IMG/VR virus record: IMGVR_UViG_3300037067_005321
Location: 32,001-96,000 of that record
Length of the DNA stretch: 64,000 nucleotides
DNA from: a virus
Taxonomy: Duplodnaviria > Caudoviricetes
Reading direction: 5' to 3' (one strand)
The position numbers were made by a program, and so were the translations under genes. Positions 1 through 30,089 of the stretch are shown one piece after another (position 1 is the first letter of the stretch; every line of letters begins with the position of its first letter). A model generated the notes under the pieces. It worked only from the letters and a program-made list of their open reading frames with translations. It was not told where the DNA came from and searched no databases.

Positions 1-311
1 CCTGATGCCATTACATTATGATTCATATGTAAGGTATTTATAACTGCTTGACAAGTTCTAATAGAAGATAGATTAGTTTTGGTTTTAATTCTTATTTGAA
101 GAGAACTATTATACTTATCTTTAGAAGTTGGAGGAGCACCACCATAAGGTAATATAGATATACAAGGAGTAGCTATACTAGGAAATTTTCCTAAATATAG
201 ATTCTTATTAGATACTAATCTAGTGCCTAGAGCAACACATACTGGAGAAGTTGCTGTTAAAGATACAAAGTATTTACTAAATTCATTCAATATAGTGTTA
301 GTTATTGCCAT
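1..311 (-). CDS. Putative tail terminator/minor capsid-type protein (partial, runs off window start)
   Basis: Open frame MAITNTILNEFSKYFVSLTATSP...PCISILPYGG...SLQIRIK; GGAG RBS upstream; position after head-closure and gp10-like genes. Confidence 0.55.
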   Translation of the reverse strand, partial: MAITNTILNEFSKYFVSLTATSPVCVALGTRLVSNKNLYLGKFPSIATPCISILPYGGAPPTSKDKYNSSLQIRIKTKTNLSSIRTCQAVINTLHMNHNVMAS

Positions 312-320
312 TTAAACTCC

Positions 321-1190
321 TTATAATGCTAAATATTCTCTATATCCAAGATATAATTCATCTAACGTAATTTCTGAAGTACCAAGTTTAGATAAATTAT
401 CATGCTCTATTAACATTTGTAAATTAAATGGATTAGCTATTACTTCTGGACTTATCCCATTTAAAAATCCATCTAACACTGTATAAATATGATCTAGGTG
501 GTATTGATATCTACCTCTTGGAAGATTTAGAGGATTAATTATATATTTATATATTTTATATATCTTATTTGAGATTCTATCTACTATTTTTCTATATTTA
601 TAATATTCAAAAATATCATAAAAATTGTATCTTAATCTAGATTCAAAGAAACATTTCTTACATCTATGGCCCTGCTGAAAATCATTCCATCTTAATTTTA
701 ACTTATGATTATTAGGACAAACTAATTCTAATTTCTGATAACAGTTGAAATATGTATTTGTAAGTAATTTATAACCCTCTAATTCCATTATATTTTTTAT
801 TTCATTTATATCTTTTCTAGCATTCCCAGAACAATGAGGACACCTATATCCAGAATACCAATTAGCATAACTCATACTATTTTTATGTTCTTTAGGGCAA
901 ATATACTCTAATTTTTGTAAGGTATTTTGATAAGTAGTACTTATTAAAATATATCCCTCTTTAAGAAACTGATTTCTAATAAAAGATATATCTAATCTTT
1001 TATTATTAGAACACTGACCACACCTTTGGCCAAATAGCCAACTATCATATCTTATTTTTCCATAATGTCCTTTTGGGCATATATACTCTAATGGATTTTT
1101 ATTATTTTTATATTTATTACTTAGTACTGTATATCCTTCTTTCTCAAATTCTTCTTTTACTAATTCAATAGTTATCTTCCTACGTTTCAT
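321..1190 (-). CDS. Free-standing HNH-type endonuclease with three treble-clef Zn-finger repeats
   Basis: Three repeats EGY..LS..Y.N....LE.ICP..H.......W..G.RC..C; C-terminal HLDH...NPFNLQML...N.SK; inserted between structural genes with its own promoter. Confidence 0.72.
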   Translation of the reverse strand: MKRRKITIELVKEEFEKEGYTVLSNKYKNNKNPLEYICPKGHYGKIRYDSWLFGQRCGQCSNNKRLDISFIRNQFLKEGYILISTTYQNTLQKLEYICPKEHKNSMSYANWYSGYRCPHCSGNARKDINEIKNIMELEGYKLLTNTYFNCYQKLELVCPNNHKLKLRWNDFQQGHRCKKCFFESRLRYNFYDIFEYYKYRKIVDRISNKIYKIYKYIINPLNLPRGRYQYHLDHIYTVLDGFLNGISPEVIANPFNLQMLIEHDNLSKLGTSEITLDELYLGYREYLAL

Positions 1191-1234
1191 TATTATAATT
1201 CCTCCTCATAATTTGTTTCCTCTTTTATTTAATT

Positions 1235-1287
1235 TATGGCAGGTAGGTGAGGAGTACCTACTTTTCGGTTACGTTTACCTAGCCATA
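1235..1287 (-). ncRNA. Structured 5' leader (three-way junction with anti-SD loop), copy 1
   Basis: TATGGC-TA-GGT(AAACGTA)ACC-GAAAA-GTAGGT(ACTCCTC)ACCTAC-CT-GCCATA; near-identical copy at 5409-5463 with a compensatory change. Confidence 0.65.
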
Positions 1288-1294
1288 CCTTATA

Positions 1295-1322
1295 TGTATA
1301 ATCACTATTTATAATTTGTCAA
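1295..1322 (-). promoter_or_regulatory. Sigma70-like promoter of the 16-bp-spacer family
   Basis: TTGACA-N16-TATACA with TGAT before the -10; directly upstream of the leader RNA. Confidence 0.6.
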
Positions 1323-1324
1323 GT

Positions 1325-1924
1325 CTATTTTTTATATTTATGAATATTTAATTCAATATTTTCTACCATAAATTTAGCCATCCTTTTAGTTGATCTCTTA
1401 GCAGCTATCTTAGCTAAATCGGCTGGTAAAGCACTAAAATCCTCTTTAATTATATTAAGATAGTATGATTGGCGCTCCAACCAAGGATTTTCTAAAAAAA
1501 GAGGCCCAGTACCTGGGAATAAAGCATGTGGATGGCTTGGTGATCCATAAGGAAATAAATTATAATGAATTATGGATGTCACATCCTCACCATCTGCATT
1601 AAATTTAGAATACTGAACATAAGCTCTAATAGATTTTGACCCTTTAATCCTCTCAGCAGATATTTTGCCTAAATCAGCAGTTACAGTACCATCTTCATTT
1701 CCACTAGCTACATTTAAATAACCTCTACTTCCAAAAGTTAATACTGCTTTACCACTTCTTCTTAATTCACCAGTGTCATAAGGAACTCTTGGTTGAGCAT
1801 TAGTTAATAAATCTATAGCTATTACAGCAGCAATCCTAGCTGATTTAACTGCAATAATCTGACCAAGAGCATCTAAATTTTTACTAACTGATTTAACTTC
1901 ATTTATATCTATAGTTACAGGCAA
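1325..1924 (-). CDS. HK97 gp10-like neck/tail-completion protein
   Basis: AQPRVPYDTGELRRSG and GTGPLFLENP motifs; synteny. Confidence 0.6.
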   Translation of the reverse strand: MPVTIDINEVKSVSKNLDALGQIIAVKSARIAAVIAIDLLTNAQPRVPYDTGELRRSGKAVLTFGSRGYLNVASGNEDGTVTADLGKISAERIKGSKSIRAYVQYSKFNADGEDVTSIIHYNLFPYGSPSHPHALFPGTGPLFLENPWLERQSYYLNIIKEDFSALPADLAKIAAKRSTKRMAKFMVENIELNIHKYKK

Positions 1925-1934
1925 TTATATCACC

Positions 1935-2246
1935 TTATGCAAGATAAAGTTTAAAATGATCAATTTGTCCAGAAAGATCTACTTCTTTATTTATAACTAA
2001 TATTTTATAATACTTACCATCTTTCAAAAGTTCATAATTTTCTTTAACTATATAATCTGGAAGAATCCAAACTTGAACAGTTGCTATTCTTTCTTCACCA
2101 GTAGAAGAAACTACTTTAGTAATTACTTCTTGCCATCTACAGTTAACATTTGAATATACTTTAGCTCTAGTAATATCGGAATAAGCATCAGTAGTTACTG
2201 AATAAATTTCACATAATTGGTTGAGTAAGCCTTGAATTAAACTCAT
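1935..2246 (-). CDS. Head-closure (head-tail joining) protein
   Basis: About 100-aa beta protein (TTDAYSD..., DGKYYKI..., HFKLYL) located after the adaptor. Confidence 0.62.
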   Translation of the reverse strand: MSLIQGLLNQLCEIYSVTTDAYSDITRAKVYSNVNCRWQEVITKVVSSTGEERIATVQVWILPDYIVKENYELLKDGKYYKILVINKEVDLSGQIDHFKLYLA

Positions 2247-2470
2247 TTATTTTCTCCTCTACTAGTCATTTCTCTCAGGCAAATTATCCATATTGCTTGA
2301 GAGATAGTATTTAAAAAAACTATAAAAAGGAACAAAGGAACTCCCAGAAGATAATGACTGTCGTTTAACCAAAGGGCTAAAAGCAAATCTAAAGGAAGAG
2401 TTATTGAACTGATCCATATCATAATCCATTCCCATCTTGTGAATTTGGGTATAACTGGGAGGCTCTTCAC
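2243..2470 (-). CDS. Small membrane protein (2 predicted TM segments)
   Basis: Two hydrophobic stretches; ATGA overlap with next gene; a competing frame exists at 2262-2504. Confidence 0.45.
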   Translation of the reverse strand: MKSLPVIPKFTRWEWIMIWISSITLPLDLLLALWLNDSHYLLGVPLFLFIVFLNTISQAIWIICLREMTSRGENK

Positions 2471-2503
2471 TTAACTCACCACCTAAAGTTTGTTCTATAG
2501 ACA

Positions 2504-2569
2504 TTATTTTTTACCTCCACAACCTTTTCCACCTTTTTTGGGTTTAGGCTTATCTTTCTTTTTAACCAA
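2504..2569 (-). CDS. 21-aa Lys/Gly-rich peptide (MVKKKDKPKPKKGGKGCGGKK), not in ORF track
   Basis: TTG start right after the upstream stop, GGAGG RBS, TAATG coupling to next ORF. Confidence 0.5.
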   Translation of the reverse strand: MVKKKDKPKPKKGGKGCGGKK

Positions 2570-2872
2570 TTATTTCTTCCCTCCTTTCCTTTTAAGTTTT
2601 TCTCTAAGTTTCTCCTTCTTTGTTTTTTTGTGCTTTTTCACCTTGTATTGCTTCAATTTTCCTTTAGGCATAGGATCTTTTGTTAAACTTTTTATACGTT
2701 TAACTTTATCAAATTTTATATTCTTAATAGACCTACGTTTTATTATATCACCAGATTTAAGTTCAATAATAAATACTCCATTCTTTATCCCAAGAAGCCT
2801 GGCACGTTGCCATTTATTTCTAGAAGTCCATACCTCAATAACAAATTTCATCTTTCTATAATCTTGATACAT
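2570..2872 (-). CDS. Highly basic hypothetical protein
   Basis: ORF track; Lys/Arg-rich C-terminus; coupled to neighbours. Confidence 0.55.
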   Translation of the reverse strand: MYQDYRKMKFVIEVWTSRNKWQRARLLGIKNGVFIIELKSGDIIKRRSIKNIKFDKVKRIKSLTKDPMPKGKLKQYKVKKHKKTKKEKLREKLKRKGGKK

Positions 2873-3054
2873 TATCTTTTCTTCTTTCTTCTTTTAGATT
2901 GTTTTTGTTTAGATGTTACTTTCTTTCTACGCTTATTCTTTCTAAGATATTCTTTATAACCTTTAGCATGTCCGTGCTCATTATACCATTTACGCCAGAG
3001 ATCAGGATGGTTAATTTTTAAAAATAGTTCTTGTTGTGGACTTGAGAAGGGCAT
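2872..3054 (-). CDS. Small basic phage protein (MPFxSxxQ...HP..W type)
   Basis: N-terminal motif of a kind frequent in phage head modules; basic tail; GGAGG RBS. Confidence 0.55.
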   Translation of the reverse strand: MPFSSPQQELFLKINHPDLWRKWYNEHGHAKGYKEYLRKNKRRKKVTSKQKQSKRRKKKR

Positions 3055-3056
3055 AC

Positions 3057-4079
3057 TTACCTCCTGGCAATCTTTAATCTTCTGGAAATCCAGCTACTTA
3101 GTAGTTTTTTAGCTGTAGATGATATAGGTATACTCATTCCACTGCCACTATCTTTTAATGATACAGATACATCCCCTATGCTAACTGATTTAGCTATAGT
3201 CTTATAACTATTTATATTTTCCATTCCTTCTGATTCTAATAAGAAAATAGCTTGCTCTATCTGAGCTTCTTTAATATTCTTATCTAATGGAACAAATAAT
3301 GCAAACTCTGTACTGGTAGCTGGAATGGATGTAAAAGCCTCTGATACTGTGATAGACCCATTAGACACATTAGAATTACTAACTAATCTTATATCATTAA
3401 GAGGAGTTCCTTCAGTAATATGAATAGTACTATATTTAAACCAATCTGTAGGATATTTACCATAAGTATCTGAATATAAAGAAGTATGTCTAAATGAAGT
3501 AGTCGTTATTGGAGTACTACAATTTCCTGTTATAACATCATGATCATCCCTAGGAAATTCAAGTGATTGTGAGTCATAATATTTATCACCTATAAATTTA
3601 AATCTGTCAATACATTTAGCAGCTTCTACTAATAGTCTTTTTTTACCTTCTATTGACAAAGAGTCCCATTTATTTGAATGACCATATTTATTCATAATAT
3701 AGTTATTAGCTTCAGTTAAAGAAGTGTAGGAATTAGCATTAGGATCACCAAGTTTTGAATTTAAAGTTAAAGAACCAAATACTTCAAAAGTAATATAATG
3801 TGTATAAACATTACTGGCTGTAGTAACTCCTGCTAGTTGAAGTTGATATGTTTCACCGACAGTACCACCTTTTACAGTCACACTAACATTAGTGGCAGTA
3901 ACAGCTTTTGTAGCAACTAGAGAGGTGGTTACATTTGCACCAAGAGAATCAAAAACTGTAGCAGTACATGAACTTATAGTCTCAGTACCAGATAAATCCT
4001 CAGTAAATTTCTTAGTTACTTGAAATCTATCTGTATTCATTTTATAAAAATAATCTACATCATGTGTATATTTTGCCAC
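3057..4079 (-). CDS. Head-tail adaptor (DnaT-like family) fused to extra beta domains
   Basis: ANSYTSL.EA..Y...W...K..LL..A...ID...FIG.K...Q.LEFPR and IKEAQIEQA..L...SIGDVSVS motifs; N-terminal fibre-adaptor-like domain; internal insertion. Confidence 0.7.
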   Translation of the reverse strand: MAKYTHDVDYFYKMNTDRFQVTKKFTEDLSGTETISSCTATVFDSLGANVTTSLVATKAVTATNVSVTVKGGTVGETYQLQLAGVTTASNVYTHYITFEVFGSLTLNSKLGDPNANSYTSLTEANNYIMNKYGHSNKWDSLSIEGKKRLLVEAAKCIDRFKFIGDKYYDSQSLEFPRDDHDVITGNCSTPITTTSFRHTSLYSDTYGKYPTDWFKYSTIHITEGTPLNDIRLVSNSNVSNGSITVSEAFTSIPATSTEFALFVPLDKNIKEAQIEQAIFLLESEGMENINSYKTIAKSVSIGDVSVSLKDSGSGMSIPISSTAKKLLSSWISRRLKIARR

Positions 4080-4502
4080 TTACTCACCTACCATAAGTTC
4101 TTTTATTTCATCTGGTATATTACAAATATGATCAGATGTTTTGACTATTATTTTTTCAAATTTATTTAATAAGTCTATTAAAACTTTATCATTTGTACAA
4201 AGTATTGTTCTTATTCCAGAAGTACCAATATATAAATTCAATTGAAATACTAGTCTATAAATATCTAATCCTTCAGAATAATCTAGATTAGTAATCTTCT
4301 TTATCTTTAACTTTTTACCTATTTTATATAGGTCAAACTGCCTCTGTGCAACTATAGCATCAGAACACAATTTTGGATAATTAATTGAAGGACTATCACT
4401 ACAAATAATAATTATATCATATTCATTATTATCTGAAGTTATAGTGTCAAAGAATTCATAAATCCAGTTATAGCAAGTATATGAAATTATTAATTTTTTC
4501 AT
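4080..4502 (-). CDS. Degenerate PIG-L/LmbE deacetylase-like protein
   Basis: QRQFDLYKIGKKLKIKKITNLDYSEGL resembles the LmbE R..E...A...LG.....L.Y.DG.L segment; lacks HPDD; start at the TAATG-coupled ATG. Confidence 0.35.
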   Translation of the reverse strand: MKKLIISYTCYNWIYEFFDTITSDNNEYDIIIICSDSPSINYPKLCSDAIVAQRQFDLYKIGKKLKIKKITNLDYSEGLDIYRLVFQLNLYIGTSGIRTILCTNDKVLIDLLNKFEKIIVKTSDHICNIPDEIKELMVGE

Positions 4503-5140
4503 TAATATATCCTCTTCAAATCTGAATAGCATTCCCATGGCGTAGCTATTATTCTTTTATCTACAGCTTCTTGACTATTATAAAATATTATTGAATGTTT
4601 CTTTTGGCTAAGACAGACAAAACTTATAAAACCCTCTGGACCAATAAAGAACTCACAATTTTGGGCTAAACAAATTAGATCTCTTATATTAGTCTCACCA
4701 ACTAGATTAACACAATTTCTTACACTTTTATAAATAGGATTATTACCTACTAAAACACATCTAAAATCTTTGTTTTCTTCTATTATAGAATTTACTGAAT
4801 CAATTGAAAATCTTTTACAGTTTCTTCCTTCTAATTTTCCACTATGGGGTTGTAGTATCCAAAATGGTTTATCAAAACAAAATCTATTATGTAAATCAAA
4901 TTGAGGAAAATATTCCATATCTTCATGGCAATCAGCGGTTATCTCTGGAATATCTAATCTAGGTTTTTCTGTGAATTCAAGTTCTATAATGAAAATATTA
5001 TATATTTCTGAAATTGATTGAGCATAGGAAATTGGATCTAAATAAGCAAACACCTTGCATTGTTTTTTTATCTTTATAACTTTTAGGCAATGAATATAAC
5101 TGTCCCCTATCCCCGCTCCAATAGAGGCTAACTCAAACAA
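4502..5140 (-). CDS. GT9 (heptosyltransferase)-like glycosyltransferase
   Basis: GIGD N-terminal motif; NLVGETNIRDL....C..FIGPEG C-terminal motif; likely TTG start after GGAG. Confidence 0.7.
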   Translation of the reverse strand: MFELASIGAGIGDSYIHCLKVIKIKKQCKVFAYLDPISYAQSISEIYNIFIIELEFTEKPRLDIPEITADCHEDMEYFPQFDLHNRFCFDKPFWILQPHSGKLEGRNCKRFSIDSVNSIIEENKDFRCVLVGNNPIYKSVRNCVNLVGETNIRDLICLAQNCEFFIGPEGFISFVCLSQKKHSIIFYNSQEAVDKRIIATPWECYSDLKRIY

Positions 5141-5369
5141 AGTTAATCTCCATATATAAATTATAATCTTCATATAACTCTCCTAAAGTTATATATGAAT
5201 TACCATTTTTGCTACTATTTTCAGAATGCTCTAACATTCTAAGATTAAATGGGTTTCCAATTACTTCTACTGGAACTTTATTTCTAAATCCATCTACTAC
5301 TGAAAATATATGATCAACATGAAATTTACTTTCATCTTTCCATTCTTTACATTTTGTGCATTGTTTCAT
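5133..5369 (-). CDS. Miniature HNH-type endonuclease (probable internal-deletion derivative)
   Basis: CTKC knuckle fused directly to HVDH..DGF....EVI.NPFNL.ML...N.SK, homologous to the C-terminus of 321-1190. Confidence 0.6.
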   Translation of the reverse strand: MKQCTKCKEWKDESKFHVDHIFSVVDGFRNKVPVEVIGNPFNLRMLEHSENSSKNGNSYITLGELYEDYNLYMEINFV

Positions 5370-5408
5370 CTTAATCACTCCCCCCTGATTTATCTCCTCT
5401 TTTATTTA

Positions 5409-5463
5409 ATTATGGCAGGTAGGTGAGGAGTACCTACTTTTTGGGAGCTGCCCTAGCCATAAT
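5409..5463 (-). ncRNA. Structured 5' leader (three-way junction with anti-SD loop), copy 2
   Basis: ATTATGGC-TA-GGG(CAGCT)CCC-AAAAA-GTAGGT(ACTCCTC)ACCTAC-CT-GCCATAAT. Confidence 0.65.
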
Positions 5464-5465
5464 AT

Positions 5466-6332
5466 TTAATTAAAATTAAATTTCTTCCTCCAATCTTCTT
5501 CTTCTAGAATATATTTTGGTATAATATCAGGATGTTTGTCTTTGAACTCAAATGGTTTACCATCTTTATCAGCAATATAACCATCATTAAACCAACAACT
5601 ATTTATACCACTTAATTCTTTATTTAATTTTATGTATTGTTCTTCATTATTAAAGTTATAGTTACGATAGATCTTATCTAACCAATTTACTTTTTTTGAC
5701 TGTGGATTATTAGGATATTCAGTCAACCAAAAATCTAATTTAGAAAAAGGATTGGTTAATAGCCCATAATGAAACATTGTTGGATTTTTAATAGATCCTA
5801 ACATAACAGATTCCTTTTTTGTACAATACCAATTTTGAGTAGGAAAAAATACATTACCATTAATTAAATTTTCTTCATTTATTCTAAATAGTCTCTGATG
5901 TTCCCCTACTAAATATCTATTTGTATTTATAAAGAAATAATAATCTCTAAATGTTATATCAGTATATTTATTTTCTTCAATGATACTCTTTATTTTATTT
6001 ATTATTTCCTGTTTATAAAATTCATCTGCATCTAGAACAAAAATCCAATTTCCAACTTCATAATTTTCTGATCTACTTAACATAAAATTAAGTAAACCAG
6101 CTTTTATAATAGAATGATTGCTTTTATTGTATTTTACATCTATGAACTTAATATGTTTCATATAAGATTTTGCTATATTATATGTCTCATCAACATATTT
6201 TTCTAATATTTCTGAATGAGCAGATACATTTACTATAACTTCATCACAGAATTTTAAGGCTTGCTCAATTGCTAAACCTATGTAATTCTCACAATTCCAA
6301 GCACATAGAAGTCCTATTATTTTAGGCTTCAT
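5466..6332 (-). CDS. GT-A fold (GT2-like) glycosyltransferase
   Basis: AWNCENYI N-terminus, WIFVLDADE DxD motif, MFHYG. Confidence 0.75.
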   Translation of the reverse strand: MKPKIIGLLCAWNCENYIGLAIEQALKFCDEVIVNVSAHSEILEKYVDETYNIAKSYMKHIKFIDVKYNKSNHSIIKAGLLNFMLSRSENYEVGNWIFVLDADEFYKQEIINKIKSIIEENKYTDITFRDYYFFINTNRYLVGEHQRLFRINEENLINGNVFFPTQNWYCTKKESVMLGSIKNPTMFHYGLLTNPFSKLDFWLTEYPNNPQSKKVNWLDKIYRNYNFNNEEQYIKLNKELSGINSCWFNDGYIADKDGKPFEFKDKHPDIIPKYILEEEDWRKKFNFN

Positions 6333-6906
6333 TCTTCTTTTCCTTTATTATGAACCAATCCCAATTTTTTTTAATTATAGAATACTTCAATTCTTCACCA
6401 AATTTATCTACTGCTGTTCTAACACCGACTTCTCTTTTACAGTAATCATGCCCACCAAATATACCACCAAGTTTTACTTTAGGATAATACAAATCAATAT
6501 CTTTTTTAACATCTTCATAAGAATGGGAAGCATCAATATAGCAAAAGTCTACCTTATTATAAATCTTATTTATAGCATTTGCAGACCAATCTTTTATAAA
6601 AACTATTTTATCTTTATAATCTTGAAGTACAAATTTACAAAACTCTTCTATTTCTGGAGTTTCAAATATATCAATAAGATATAACTTTTTTATATCTAAT
6701 TCATCTAGTATTCGTTTAGCATTAACTCCAAACTGAACACCAACCTCAATCCCTACTAAATTAGATTTACCTTTTAATTCATTAAACATTGGCCTATCCT
6801 CAAATATACTGGAATTCATAGATACCATTACATCACTATATCTATTATCCTGTAAGTATTTTAGTAAAGTTTCATTATTTAATTCACTTTTAAGTTCTGG
6901 ATTCAT
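6322..6906 (-). CDS. Class I SAM methyltransferase (Methyltransf_24-like)
   Basis: EVGVQFG, DFCYIDASHSYE.V..D, GG...GHDY. Confidence 0.85.
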   Translation of the reverse strand: MNPELKSELNNETLLKYLQDNRYSDVMVSMNSSIFEDRPMFNELKGKSNLVGIEVGVQFGVNAKRILDELDIKKLYLIDIFETPEIEEFCKFVLQDYKDKIVFIKDWSANAINKIYNKVDFCYIDASHSYEDVKKDIDLYYPKVKLGGIFGGHDYCKREVGVRTAVDKFGEELKYSIIKKNWDWFIIKEKKNEA

Positions 6907-8123
6907 GTATTACACCTCTGATGTGAAACTAATTTATTTTTAAATTCATTATTAAATTCTTTTATTATACTTTTCAATTCATGATTAGTAAAGTTTGGGG
7001 TGGACCAAATATCATTATCATATTCTCCCTGTTTAGACCAATCACAATTTTTAAACTCATCTTGATAATACTTAGTTCCAGGGTAAGGGCAGAGCAAAGT
7101 CATACCAAATATATTAGGATCAGTATCAATAATTAATTGTCTAGTCTCTTCAATAGTCTCTTTTGTTTCTAGTGGATTACCAGTAATATAAAATCCTCTC
7201 ATATCAAGACCAGCTTCTTTACCCCATTTAAAAACATCTCTAATCTTTTGTGGAGTTGTACCTTTATTAATTTCGTTAAGTATTTTCTGGCTTCCAGACT
7301 CACAACCAATTGCTATCTGGTCACAATTGGCTCTTTTTAACAATGATAAAATGTCTTTAGTTATATAAGCAGAATGTAGCATACATTGAAATGGAAGTTT
7401 ATTATCCCTTCTTATTTTTTCTTCACAAAAATCTATAGTTTGTGTACTATCTTTTTCAATCCATGTGGGATCTGCAAATTTAAAATAGTTTATATTATAT
7501 TTCTTTTTGCAATATTCTATTTCATCTAATGTATCATTAACATCTCTATATCTCACATTATTGTGACTCATTTCCTTTTCTCCGCAAATTGCACAGGAGT
7601 GGGAGCACCCTCTTTTAGATACTATAGACAAAATACGCTGATTACAAACTTTTTCACAATAATCTAAATGTCTAGATTCATTAAATAATTCTCTATCAGG
7701 CCAAGATATTTGTGAAAATGGCAACATTTTACCATATATAATTTTACCAGTATTTCCATTTAATACTTCTAATAATCCAGTCTCACCTTCACCAATAATA
7801 ATTTGGTCTACGACTTGATCTGGACTTATCTTTGTGGATGTTACGTGGAATCCACCTAAAACTATTCTAACCTTTTTATTTATAGCTTTTATTTTCTTTG
7901 CTGATTCTATTACTGACTGAAATACACAAGTAGTTGCAGAAAATGCGGCAATATCCGCTTTTGACGTTGCATTAATTATATCTTCTTCTTTATCAAAATT
8001 ACCATGATAAAATTCTATATCTAACTCACCATTATAATTCTTTTTTATATAAGAAGATAAATATCCAGACCATAATGGCTCCCAAATATTATTGTAATAG
8101 TTTTGAATTAAAACTAATTTCAT
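6903..8123 (-). CDS. Cobalamin-binding radical SAM enzyme
   Basis: GGFHVT/GEGE B12-domain motifs; SKRGCSHSCAIC; IGCESGSQKIL. Confidence 0.88.
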   Translation of the reverse strand: MKLVLIQNYYNNIWEPLWSGYLSSYIKKNYNGELDIEFYHGNFDKEEDIINATSKADIAAFSATTCVFQSVIESAKKIKAINKKVRIVLGGFHVTSTKISPDQVVDQIIIGEGETGLLEVLNGNTGKIIYGKMLPFSQISWPDRELFNESRHLDYCEKVCNQRILSIVSKRGCSHSCAICGEKEMSHNNVRYRDVNDTLDEIEYCKKKYNINYFKFADPTWIEKDSTQTIDFCEEKIRRDNKLPFQCMLHSAYITKDILSLLKRANCDQIAIGCESGSQKILNEINKGTTPQKIRDVFKWGKEAGLDMRGFYITGNPLETKETIEETRQLIIDTDPNIFGMTLLCPYPGTKYYQDEFKNCDWSKQGEYDNDIWSTPNFTNHELKSIIKEFNNEFKNKLVSHQRCNT

Positions 8124-26649: not shown

Positions 26650-27516
26650 TCACCTCTTAAAATTTAAGTATAATAGTATACTTTCAAATGTTCTCATTTG
26701 ATCATCTGATATAACCTCATAGGAATATCCATTTTCTTCTGCAAATTTATATCCAGCTTCTATTTTAGCTATAGTTTTTGGAAATTCTAATTTATATTTA
26801 GGTTTTATCTCTTGTATATATCTATCATTAATGATAAAATCTGGTACATAATTTCTAATATGTCCTTCAAATTCATACTTTATTATAAAAGGTTCCATAT
26901 CATATTTGATTACATCATCTGAAAATTCTAAGATATTTAAGTATATTTCTTCCCAAGAGGATCTATATAAAAAAGTTTTATTATTTTTAATTGAATAAAA
27001 ATAACCTTGTTTATGATATTTTCCTCTTATAATTCCTTTAGCAGCATTTTCAGAAACTCTATCAGCAACTTCTGGTATTTTCATTGGATTATCAACACCA
27101 TATTTTTCTAACAAAGTTTTTTCTCTACTATCTTTTGCTTTTAACATTGAAGAAACTTTATGAGTTTTACCAGCAAAAGAATTATTATCTAATTGACTTA
27201 TAGATATTTTATTCTTATGATCTTGTGATAATTTTCTTCCTTTAGTAGAGATATTTCCAATAGCAATTTTACTTTGTAATTCTTTTTTATAATCAGACAT
27301 TAATTTTGCATCTGGAAATAATTTTAAGTATTCTTCTTTAGTTAAATTATGTCTATTTTTTAAATGTTTAGGATTTAAATAAGTTCTTTTTAAACCACAT
27401 ATTTTACACTCAATATAATCTATATTTTCTATTCCATCTTTAAATTTTATCAAAGATTTTTCTACTTCATGTCTTATTAAATAATTAAGAGATCTTTCTC
27501 TAGAAGACATTGCCAT
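26650..27516 (-). CDS. Free-standing TnsA-like PD-(D/E)XK endonuclease with Zn-finger and NUMOD-type DNA-binding modules
   Basis: CKICG...HL..H....EY...FP; LEKYGVDNP; YRSSWE...EPF.I.Y...YVPDF...EIKP. Confidence 0.75.
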   Translation of the reverse strand: MAMSSRERSLNYLIRHEVEKSLIKFKDGIENIDYIECKICGLKRTYLNPKHLKNRHNLTKEEYLKLFPDAKLMSDYKKELQSKIAIGNISTKGRKLSQDHKNKISISQLDNNSFAGKTHKVSSMLKAKDSREKTLLEKYGVDNPMKIPEVADRVSENAAKGIIRGKYHKQGYFYSIKNNKTFLYRSSWEEIYLNILEFSDDVIKYDMEPFIIKYEFEGHIRNYVPDFIINDRYIQEIKPKYKLEFPKTIAKIEAGYKFAEENGYSYEVISDDQMRTFESILLYLNFKR

Positions 27517-27544
27517 GTCATTAACCTCCGTAATAGGATTATTC

Positions 27545-27598
27545 TAGGGTGTGGATGAAGATTACGGCCCCATCCACATTTAATCCTGCCAGACCCTA
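27545..27598 (-). ncRNA. Structured 5' leader with two segments complementary to the RBS region
   Basis: TAGGG/CCCTA outer stem; TGTGGATGGGG/CTTCATCCACA inner stem; CCGTAAT and AGGATTA match downstream ATTACGG and TAATCCT. Confidence 0.55.
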
Positions 27599-27604
27599 TT
27601 TTAT

Positions 27605-27632
27605 AATATAATCATTTTATTTCTTTTGTCAA
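27605..27632 (-). promoter_or_regulatory. Promoter, 16-bp-spacer family
   Basis: TTGACA-N16-TATATT with TGAT. Confidence 0.65.
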
Positions 27633-29168: not shown

Positions 29169-30089
29169 TTATTCTTTTTTAGGATGCAATTTTGCATCTC
29201 TCTTCTTTTTAATCTCTATAAGATCTTCAACTGAAAGACCTTTTTCATCTGCTTCTTCAATTAAATCTGGATCTTTTGGATCATATGTACCTGGAGTGCT
29301 CTTAGAGAGCTTTTTATTTTTGTCAGATGAGTCATCCCCACCCTTCTTTAGATCCGGTCCACCTACTTTAATTTTAGACTTTACAAGGTTCTCATTTTTA
29401 GGATCTGATAGAAATTCTTTGACAATATCTTCAACTGTTTTTCTATCCTTCAATTTTCCGTTATTGTCTCTTATATCATGTGAAAATTCATCCAAACTTT
29501 CATCATACTCAAATTTATACTCAAGCATATTCATTATTTGAGAAGGATTAAAGGCATCATACTTAATAGCAGATTCCATTAGTTCACTCCTAAGCCTTGA
29601 TTTTCTTAAATTTGAAATAACGCCATCTTTGTCTGCTAACTTCTTTTGTAATTCTTCAGTAGCTTTTTTTGTACCATTAAGATTGTCTTCCATCTCTTTC
29701 TTAAAAGTATCAAACTTTTTATTGAAAGAGAATTCAGCTTTTTCAAGATCAGACTTCTTACTCATTTCCAAATCTTCCTTCTCCTTGTCAATTGAAGCTT
29801 TATGATCTTTCAATTCTTGGAGTTCTTTCTTTAGAGCAGTAAGTTCATCACCTTTAGGCATATCTTTAATTTGTGCCTCAAGATCTTTCATCTGATCACG
29901 CAATTTATTACGTTCCTCTTTGACTTTATCTCGATCTTTAAACGCCTTTTTACTTTCTTCTTTCCAGAATTTCTTATCCTTCTTCTCTTCTTCTTCTATC
30001 TGTTTTGTTAAATCATCATCACTAATATTTTCATCTTTTATTTCAATTTCCAACTCTTTTGCTTTATCTAAAAGTTCTTTCTTTGCCAT
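29169..30089 (-). CDS. Capsid scaffolding protein
   Basis: Charged coiled coil between portal and capsid genes. Confidence 0.75.
   Translation of the reverse strand: MAKKELLDKAKELEIEIKDENISDDDLTKQIEEEEKKDKKFWKEESKKAFKDRDKVKEERNKLRDQMKDLEAQIKDMPKGDELTALKKELQELKDHKASIDKEKEDLEMSKKSDLEKAEFSFNKKFDTFKKEMEDNLNGTKKATEELQKKLADKDGVISNLRKSRLRSELMESAIKYDAFNPSQIMNMLEYKFEYDESLDEFSHDIRDNNGKLKDRKTVEDIVKEFLSDPKNENLVKSKIKVGGPDLKKGGDDSSDKNKKLSKSTPGTYDPKDPDLIEEADEKGLSVEDLIEIKKKRDAKLHPKKE

Follow-up and report, generated by a model that had tools for sequence, protein, structure and literature searches.

In a 64,000-nt stretch of DNA from a phage of the class Caudoviricetes (IMG/VR record IMGVR_UViG_3300037067_005321, bases 32001-96000; hereafter the window), two free-standing nuclease genes are each headed by a small structured leader RNA that belongs to the Rfam family int-alpA (RF02996). 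These leaders, designated copy 1 and copy 2, are new members of a known RNA family that lacks an assigned function. Both fold into a three-way junction of the helices P1, P2 and P3, and the loop of P3, termed L, covaries with two short boxes downstream of the junction, B1 and B2, the second of which lies at the ribosome-binding site of the nuclease gene. With a probability of roughly 0.6, the leader is read here as a brake on translation in cis, in which pairing of L with B2 would close the ribosome-binding site and B1 would serve as the alternative partner of the loop; the leaders would thus most likely limit the amount of nuclease that is made. A third copy lies outside the window in the same viral genome, which comprises 135.7 kb with direct terminal repeats and a G+C content of 28.5% and belongs to a lytic-looking phage. 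The window was matched in DNA runs only, from one groundwater and one landfill metagenome, and a megablast comparison of its positions 1-6400 with cultured phage records gave no match.

When the whole window was compared with Rfam 15, exactly two matches exceeded the gathering score, both to int-alpA, which we take to be among the candidate motifs published by Weinberg et al. (2017). Relative to the curated gathering score of this family, 35.8 bits, copy 1 reaches 43.3 bits (1219-1289) and copy 2 reaches 47.6 bits (5396-5463), both at full length over model positions 1-71, and copy 3 (genome 10556-10627, plus strand) scores 39.5 bits. A covariance model built from 67 phage relatives gave 54.0 bits for copy 1 and 59.6 bits for copy 2, and its application to the phage genome recovered the same three copies and no further divergent ones at E-values up to 1. 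An earlier note on this DNA, made from the sequence without database searches, had regarded the leader as new and proposed a covariance search against Rfam as a check. That search identified both copies as RF02996 and, because both exceed the cut-off of the family, the leader is not a novel family but an already catalogued one. In the literature searched, which did not extend to the supplement of the discovery paper, int-alpA is merely listed and no function is described for it; the main text of PMC5737381 does not discuss the family.

The copies share with the int-alpA consensus the junction of P1, P2 and P3, the junction nucleotides UA, GAAAA and CU (with AAAAA in place of GAAAA in copy 2) and a purine box about 14 nt after P1 that is complementary to the P3 loop (loop CCuU and tail AgGG in the RF02996 consensus) and is represented here by B1. 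They differ from the consensus in two respects. The run of U residues that follows P1 in the consensus is absent from both window copies, in which P1 is rich in A and U. Moreover, the integrase and alpA genes that gave the family its name are not found near the window copies, whose neighbors are nuclease, tail-completion, head-tail adaptor and glycosyltransferase genes; int-alpA here heads free-standing nuclease genes within the virion-gene arm of the phage.

The two copies, their positions, the fold and the change in P2 from GGT/ACC to GGG/CCC could all be located as the earlier note had described them (Table 1). Over P3 and its loop, copies 1 and 2 are identical for 19 nt, and this 19-mer occurs exactly twice in the window and in none of 100 shuffled sequences. 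Folded alone, copies 2 and 3 have the three-way junction as their minimum-energy structure (z-scores of -2.05 and -3.22), although the thermodynamic support for the junction on its own should be considered modest. For a comparative analysis, at least 120 IMG/VR loci were collected with a degenerate junction pattern and condensed to 90 unique leaders, nearly all of them well formed, and 67 distinct cores of this phage sample entered the covariation test. In these relatives, 84% of the helix cells are paired, compared with 64% in shuffles; the covariation score was reached by none of 500 shuffles and the signal disappears when the partners are slid. Covariation is seen in P1 and P3, the inner pairs of P3 and the fourth pair of P1 each show the full set of four Watson-Crick types, and G-U pairs are present at several paired positions. 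The invariant pairs (three in P1, two in P2 and one in P3) are uninformative, since the search pattern had fixed them. Taken as a conserved structured RNA, the fold of the leader is supported.

Table 1. Coordinates of the leader RNAs, their pairing boxes, promoters and downstream genes. Positions refer to the window unless stated otherwise; energies are in kcal/mol.
Feature	Position	Strand	Sequence or basis
Copy 1, three-way junction	1235-1287	-	RF02996 and covariance model of phage relatives
Copy 1, P1	1287-1282 / 1240-1235	-	TATGGC / GCCATA
Copy 1, P2	1279-1277 / 1269-1267	-	GGT / ACC, loop AAACGTA
Copy 1, linker	1266-1262	-	GAAAA
Copy 1, P3	1261-1256 / 1248-1243	-	GTAGGT / ACCTAC, loop L ACTCCTC (1255-1249)
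Copy 1, B1	1218-1222	-	GAGGA; candidate decoy or parking site, aligns with the Rfam 3' 'AgGG'; L:B1 -8.1
Copy 1, B2	1208-1201	-	TGAGGAGG (as RNA UGAGGAGG); Shine-Dalgarno box of the gene starting at 1190; L:B2 -11.7, anti-Shine-Dalgarno:B2 -12.3
Copy 1, P4 hairpin	1192-1212 (1212-1206 / 1198-1192)	-	predicted fold; weak A/U stem of 7 bp, GGAGGAA in loop
Copy 2, three-way junction	5409-5463	-	RF02996 and covariance model of phage relatives
Copy 2, P1	5463-5456 / 5416-5409	-	8 bp
Copy 2, P2		-	GGG / CCC, loop CAGCT
Copy 2, B1	5394-5399	-	GAGGAG; 24 nt before the start codon; L:B1 -10.8
Copy 2, B2	5383-5377	-	GGGGAGT; Shine-Dalgarno, 8 nt before ATG 5369; L:B2 -11.4
Copy 2, P4 hairpin	5373-5390 (5390-5386 / 5377-5373)	-	predicted fold; AAUCA / UGAUU, loop GGGGGGAG
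Likely promoter of copy 1	1295-1322	-	-35 TTGACA (1322-1317), 16-nt spacer, -10 TATACA (1300-1295)
Promoter consensus sites in the window	1295-1322, 17353, 27632, 38248, 39113	- (all)	consensus match
Promoter consensus sites outside the window	genome 13207, 29780, 131960	-, -, +	consensus match
Nuclease gene after copy 1, 289 amino acids	321-1190	-	three CapR-type zinc-ribbon repeats and C-terminal H-x-DH...N...N domain
Minimal nuclease gene after copy 2, 78 amino acids	5133-5369	-	CxxC and H-x-DH...N...N domain
Gene after copy 3, CapR-repeat/HNH paralogue of 300 amino acids	locus L003:1595-2497 (copy 3 at L003:1501-1572)	+	paralogue alignment

The evidence that one loop serves two partners comes from the three copies of this phage and from their relatives. 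In the earlier note, L had been described as complementary to the Shine-Dalgarno sequence of both genes. This applies to copy 1, in which B2 is the Shine-Dalgarno box of the nuclease gene, whereas the GAGGAG named for copy 2 is B1 and the real Shine-Dalgarno sequence of that gene is the B2 box GGGGAGT. B1 and B2 are complementary to overlapping parts of L, so that a single loop could hold only one of them. Copy 3 provides a coordinated change of all three elements in the same genome: P3 carries a compensatory change to GAAGGU/ACCUUC, and L (ACUUCCA), B1 (UGGAAG) and B2 (UGGAAGU) are altered in concert relative to copies 1 and 2. The B2 of copy 3 pairs with the generic anti-Shine-Dalgarno sequence at -4.0 kcal/mol, compared with -9.7 kcal/mol for its own loop.

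The same relationship extends across the family. The 83 well-formed unique phage leaders carry 53 distinct loops, and 45 of these 53 members possess two or more complements of L, defined as at least 5 bp within +5 to +50 nt of the junction end, while swapping loops between leaders yielded a mean of 11.6 and a maximum of 18 in 300 trials. A further 87 leaders, drawn independently from bacterial genomes with a different pattern that left the loop, P1 and P2 free, contained both boxes in 45 of 54 cases (control mean 22.4, maximum 29). The covariation of the P3 loop with the downstream Shine-Dalgarno sequence that the earlier note had anticipated for homologues is thus borne out by the change in copy 3 and by the loop-swap comparison. 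In the phage sample, B1 starts at a median of 13 nt past the junction (range 9-20) and B2 at a median of 26 nt. The distance from the end of B2 to the start codon is 4-9 nt in 25 of the 56 phage leaders with a called start and 1 nt in a further 17; since the latter group includes leaders of DUF927 genes with boxes of the GACGGC type, which do not resemble a Shine-Dalgarno sequence, the conserved feature is RNA-RNA complementarity rather than Shine-Dalgarno resemblance. In addition, each of the three phage copies has its B2 within the loop of a small hairpin, P4, directly ahead of the start codon, and the AAUCA/UGAUU hairpin of copy 2 recurs in copy 3. A stem of at least 4 bp flanks B2 in 40 of 74 bacterial leaders and B1 in 5 of 74, and the corresponding values in the phage sample are 20 and 11 of 56. 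With B2 placed in a hairpin loop, the pairing L:B2 would take the form of a loop-loop kiss, and L:B1 that of a pseudoknot.

According to the favored mechanism, the compact three-way junction would offer L either to the single-stranded B1, about 13 nt past P1, or to B2 in the P4 loop, and L would hold one box at a time. As long as L kisses B2, the ribosome could not load and the nuclease would not be made; with L parked on B1 as a pseudoknot, the ribosome-binding site would be free. In this reading, the leader would restrain the translation of genes whose products do harm in surplus. Each of the three copies in this phage has L:B2 as its more stable pairing (-9.7 against -8.1 kcal/mol for L:B1 in copy 3; Table 1 for copies 1 and 2), and B1 is transcribed first, an order of events that would fit a short burst of translation and a subsequent shut-off. 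The tight spacing of B1 and B2 argues for a fold in cis. We infer repression rather than activation, action in cis and a shift in the balance between the two pairings as the likely working mode of the leader. Tight dosing is plausible for the nucleases, antirepressors and primase-like genes that stand downstream of the family and, if the mechanism holds, it would explain how many free-standing nuclease genes are tolerated within essential phage operons.

A comparable arrangement is found in T-even phages, in which RNA structure hides the ribosome-binding sites belonging to homing-endonuclease genes (I-TevI, I-TevII, I-TevIII, segB and mobE); in T4, the Shine-Dalgarno sequence lies in the stem of a stable local hairpin and is relieved by an internal late promoter (PMC2988022). 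The likeness consists in the same class of genes and in the use of RNA structure at the ribosome-binding site to hold down the translation of a selfish nuclease. Here, in contrast, most of the Shine-Dalgarno sequence falls within a weak hairpin's loop, where it would be reached by the distant P3 loop, and a second box competes for that loop; an internal promoter like the late one of T4 was not seen at the leaders.

Several observations weigh against a cis brake. Pairing of a loop with the region of a ribosome-binding site can also activate translation, as in the pseudoknot of IncI repZ. The junction nucleotides UA, GAAAA and CU are conserved far beyond what a passive scaffold would need, which hints at a bound factor or ligand, and a U-run follows P1 in 45% of the phage members compared with 6% of control positions, although it is missing from the two window copies. 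The consensus fold of copy 1 has a predicted energy of -13.9 kcal/mol, 1.6 kcal/mol above the minimum of -15.5 kcal/mol. Finally, B1 is the stronger partner in 36 of 57 family members and B2 in 19 of 57; the greater stability of L:B2, and with it the bias towards burst and shut-off, is not general across the family.

The earlier note had left the choice between a pseudoknot and a trans-acting switch open. The complementarity of the loop to the ribosome-binding site and its covariation stand under both, with action in cis favored and a trans-acting RNA of the immunity type, like P1 C4 or P4 CI, rather unlikely, yet ahead of the other alternatives. In such a system, the junction would be set free as a small stable RNA, either through termination past P1 or through processing, and its loop would pair with B1 and B2 on other transcripts of the gene, so that a block of translation or termination would scale with the amount of leader RNA. 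Antirepressor and primase-type genes are the classes controlled by C4 and CI, and int-alpA stands before genes for antirepressors (AntA, KilAC, P22_AR_N, Rha, Bro-N and KilA-N) as well as before DUF927 genes; Escherichia coli islands with the motif likewise carry KilAC, Icd-like and DUF927 genes. The typing of int-alpA as a small RNA in Rfam ('Gene; sRNA') and the U-run after P1, which is part of the Rfam consensus, point in the same direction, and the 53 distinct loops, each change of which requires three coordinated substitutions, would fit selection for specificity. C4 RNA uses two loops. One loop with two target sites follows the logic of P4 CI, which pairs with seqA and seqC on its own transcript (PMC4825925). 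The resemblance to C4 and CI therefore comprises a small folded leader RNA, a loop complementary to sites within its own transcript and, across the family, antirepressor or primase-type contexts. It does not extend to family membership, as the Rfam C4 model (RF01695) found no match in 1100-5600 at E-values up to 10, nor to the layout, since one loop here reads two sites that are both downstream, while seqA and seqC flank CI (PMC4825925). Action in trans is further opposed by the absence of a U-run after P1 in both window copies, by the embedding of copy 2 in a polycistronic message, where it follows a stop codon at a distance of 2 nt, and by the narrow, fixed distance of B1 from P1, which a target in trans would not require. 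In addition, copies 1 and 2 would cross-regulate, because their loops are identical. The parallel that the earlier note drew to the T4 hairpins, P1 C4 and P4 CI is nevertheless apt as a description of the working mode.

The loop of P2 introduces another candidate mechanism. In the phage sample, a palindrome of 4 nt is present in 20 of 36 distinct P2 segments, covering 10 of the 16 possible palindromes, whereas shuffled P2 loops contain 6.6 +/- 2.1 (maximum 15 in 2000 trials) and only 6 of 54 P3 loops have one. The bacterial sample shows a palindrome in 19 of 29 cases, compared with 6.7 +/- 2.0, and 7 of its 10 exceptions constitute another class of P2, in which a stem of 4 bp carries the loop GACG. 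In this phage, the palindromes are ACGU (copy 1), AGCU (copy 2) and UGUACA (copy 3). This self-complementarity suggests that P2 loops permit tip-to-tip pairing of two identical leaders. A palindromic kissing loop is known as the dimerization initiation site of retroviruses, with which P2 shares self-complementary tetranucleotides, flanked by A on both sides in a subset of members, and a complementarity that is kept while the sequence varies; P2 palindromes differ in being only 4 nt long in most members (6 in copy 3), and dimerization is proposed here from sequence alone. A concentration-sensing, self-dimerizing off-switch, for which we hold out a slighter chance than for action in trans, would keep L on B1 in cis in the monomer, leaving the ribosome-binding site free. 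Once transcripts have accumulated, they would dock through their P2 loops and each L would kiss the B2 of its partner, shutting both messages. Such a switch would use all four covarying elements, namely the P2 palindrome, L, B1 and B2, and would, if true, turn int-alpA into a portable dose limiter that consists of RNA only, with the P2 palindrome determining its specificity. Self-complementarity also accounts better for the variable P2 loop than the guide or cofactor role that the earlier note had entertained. No evidence in support of a guide or cofactor RNA was obtained and the idea was dropped, as the same leader precedes unrelated proteins.

The remaining readings are less probable than either of these. 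A sensor RNA, in which the junction nucleotides UA, GAAAA and CU would bind a small molecule or protein that decides whether L goes to B1 or B2, is doubtful. Its appeal lies in the near invariance of these nucleotides in phage and proteobacterial members while the helices vary, and in the resemblance of a two-partner loop to an expression platform; the regulated genes are too diverse for one ligand and the junction, with 9 unpaired nucleotides, is very small. Even less can be said for an activator or stabilizer, according to which the pairing of L with B1 or B2, together with a 5'-terminal junction, would protect the mRNA or open the start region and thereby raise expression. A structured 5' end is a known stabilizer of mRNA and pseudoknots adjacent to the ribosome-binding site activate repZ, and the junction of copy 1 would stand at the very 5' end of its transcript; in members with boxes resembling a Shine-Dalgarno sequence, however, B2 covers the Shine-Dalgarno core, so that pairing should exclude the 30S subunit. 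An element at the DNA level (a recombination site, homing site or protein operator) is highly improbable and already disfavored: the motif adjoins integrase genes in bacteria and P2 is near-palindromic as DNA, but several paired positions carry G-U pairs, every member examined has the same orientation towards its downstream gene, the position of B2 is linked to the start codon, and no single protein site is conserved, because the palindromes differ between copies.

The leader is not confined to nuclease genes. Among the matches listed, the genes that follow the phage leaders fall into 39 clusters, in which Pfam recognizes a DUF927 primase-like protein of about 950 amino acids on 34 contigs, two clusters of DUF1376 proteins, antirepressors of six types (AntA, KilAC+AntA, P22_AR_N, Rha, Bro-N and KilA-N), nucleases (HNH_3+AP2 twice, HNH_3, HNH/HNH_5 and GIY-YIG), a TnpB-like protein and a methyltransferase; many further genes have no family. 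The statement of the earlier note that the leader travels with HNH-type genes is therefore accurate locally, where it precedes three of five paralogues, and too narrow elsewhere. The flanks of other contigs in the phage sample contained essentially no second leader copy. Hardly any of the genes that follow the bacterial leaders carry an annotation. Comamonas testosteroni is one of the cultured carriers of the motif. Another is E. coli, with the motif in 25 of 5426 complete genomes, in which it has no RNA annotation; in NZ_CP061754.1 (523626-523720) it lies within the 91 nt that separate a tyrosine integrase gene from a variable DUF6387 gene, and an island with the motif also has genes for a helix-turn-helix regulator, KilAC, an Icd-like protein and DUF927. 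As a separate observation, the leader at IMG/VR locus L072:974-2733 (minus strand) heads a TnpB-like protein of 549 amino acids with a Cas12f1-like TNB domain (Pfam, 1.2e-16). Together, the window copies and about 100 relatives point to a concrete mechanism for int-alpA, in which one loop has two alternative partners and one of these is the ribosome-binding site. The family would represent a portable module for the control of phage and satellite genes whose dosage has to be kept tight, such as those for homing nucleases, antirepressors and primases and, if this is true, would supply a small, reprogrammable part for translational control.

The transcription of the two window copies differs. Copy 1 is preceded by a likely promoter with a predicted transcript start 1-4 nt upstream of P1. 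A generic promoter scan did not call it, because its -10 element ends in A; it is nevertheless an exact copy of a consensus that recurs in this phage, TTGACA-N16-TATAtT with TGAT before the -10 element, which fits the placement of copy 1 directly behind its own TTGACA promoter in the earlier note. A second exact copy belongs to a paralogue at genome 29.78 kb and about eight further sites in the genome match with 2-4 mismatches (Table 1). The consensus probably marks one temporal class of phage transcripts; several of its instances are preceded by CCCC. P1 of copy 2 begins only 2 nt past the stop codon (5468-5466) of an upstream GT2 glycosyltransferase gene, which leaves no room for a promoter, and this copy must therefore be transcribed by read-through from upstream. 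The ribosome terminating on the glycosyltransferase gene would cover the 5' strand of P1. Family-wide, a -10 box directly upstream of P1 is unconvincing (21 of 67 leaders, compared with 4-19 of 66-67 at control offsets). In copy 1 (1180-1222, minus strand), an ATG (1209-1207) located 8 nt after B1 opens an upstream reading frame of nine codons, MRRNYNNET, that overlaps the nuclease start codon out of frame. A leader peptide was rejected as a general mechanism, since copy 2 has no counterpart.

The C-terminal domain that the earlier note recognized in both downstream genes is real, with an H-x-D-H...N...N motif that is invariant in five paralogues of this phage, although no HNH profile reaches significance on it: Pfam gave no HNH hit and the best match was GmrSD_C at an E-value of 0.2. 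A sequence search of the PDB with this domain returned nothing relevant, and its AlphaFold model (pLDDT, the predicted local distance difference test score, of 52.7) was too poor for a fold search. The protein of 289 amino acids matches Pfam CapR (3.6e-08) as well as PHROG 559 ('HNH endonuclease') and PHROG 681 ('endonuclease'), both of which span the N-terminal repeats only. The protein of 78 amino acids falls into PHROGs 23051 and 5104, neither with an assigned function, and gave the weak GmrSD_C match.

While three of the five HNH paralogues carry the int-alpA leader, one has neither this leader nor the promoter of copy 1. The fourth paralogue, a protein of 359 amino acids (genome approximately 29550-29780, minus strand; locus L129:2551-2670, minus strand), is preceded by the copy 1 promoter TTGACA...TAAATAGTGATTATA with 0 mismatches and by a different leader, a hairpin of 10 bp (UGAGGAGUAG/CUACUCCUCA). 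The loop of this hairpin, CUGCUAU, is a perfect complement of an AUAGCAG that adjoins the Shine-Dalgarno sequence. Resemblance between the three int-alpA copies sets in at P1. Promoter, leader and gene are consequently separable modules: the components of the mobile promoter, RNA and nuclease cassette envisaged in the earlier note are present, but their combination is modular rather than fixed, as the promoter of copy 1 is shared with a paralogue that has another leader and copy 2 has no promoter. As an insertion test, relatives of the flanking tail-completion gene were sought in viral contigs and none were found, so that the cassette boundaries are drawn only from the three copies in this genome.

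Two further observations concern the surroundings of these elements. The small nuclease and its leader are located inside a block (4080-8123, minus strand) that separates the head-tail adaptor gene from the remainder of the virion arm and also contains the GT2 glycosyltransferase gene (5466-6332; Pfam 4.9e-07) and, as judged by eye, methyltransferase-like (6322-6906) and radical SAM-like (6903-8123) genes. At 27510-27632 (minus strand), a promoter of the same consensus as that of copy 1 is followed by an unrelated structured leader without a match in Rfam. Its closing stem, TAGGG/CCCTA, encloses the sequence AGGATTA and a long hairpin with the loop CCGTAAT, and the complements of both, TAATCCT and ATTACGG, lie directly downstream beside an AGG and the ATG at 27516.

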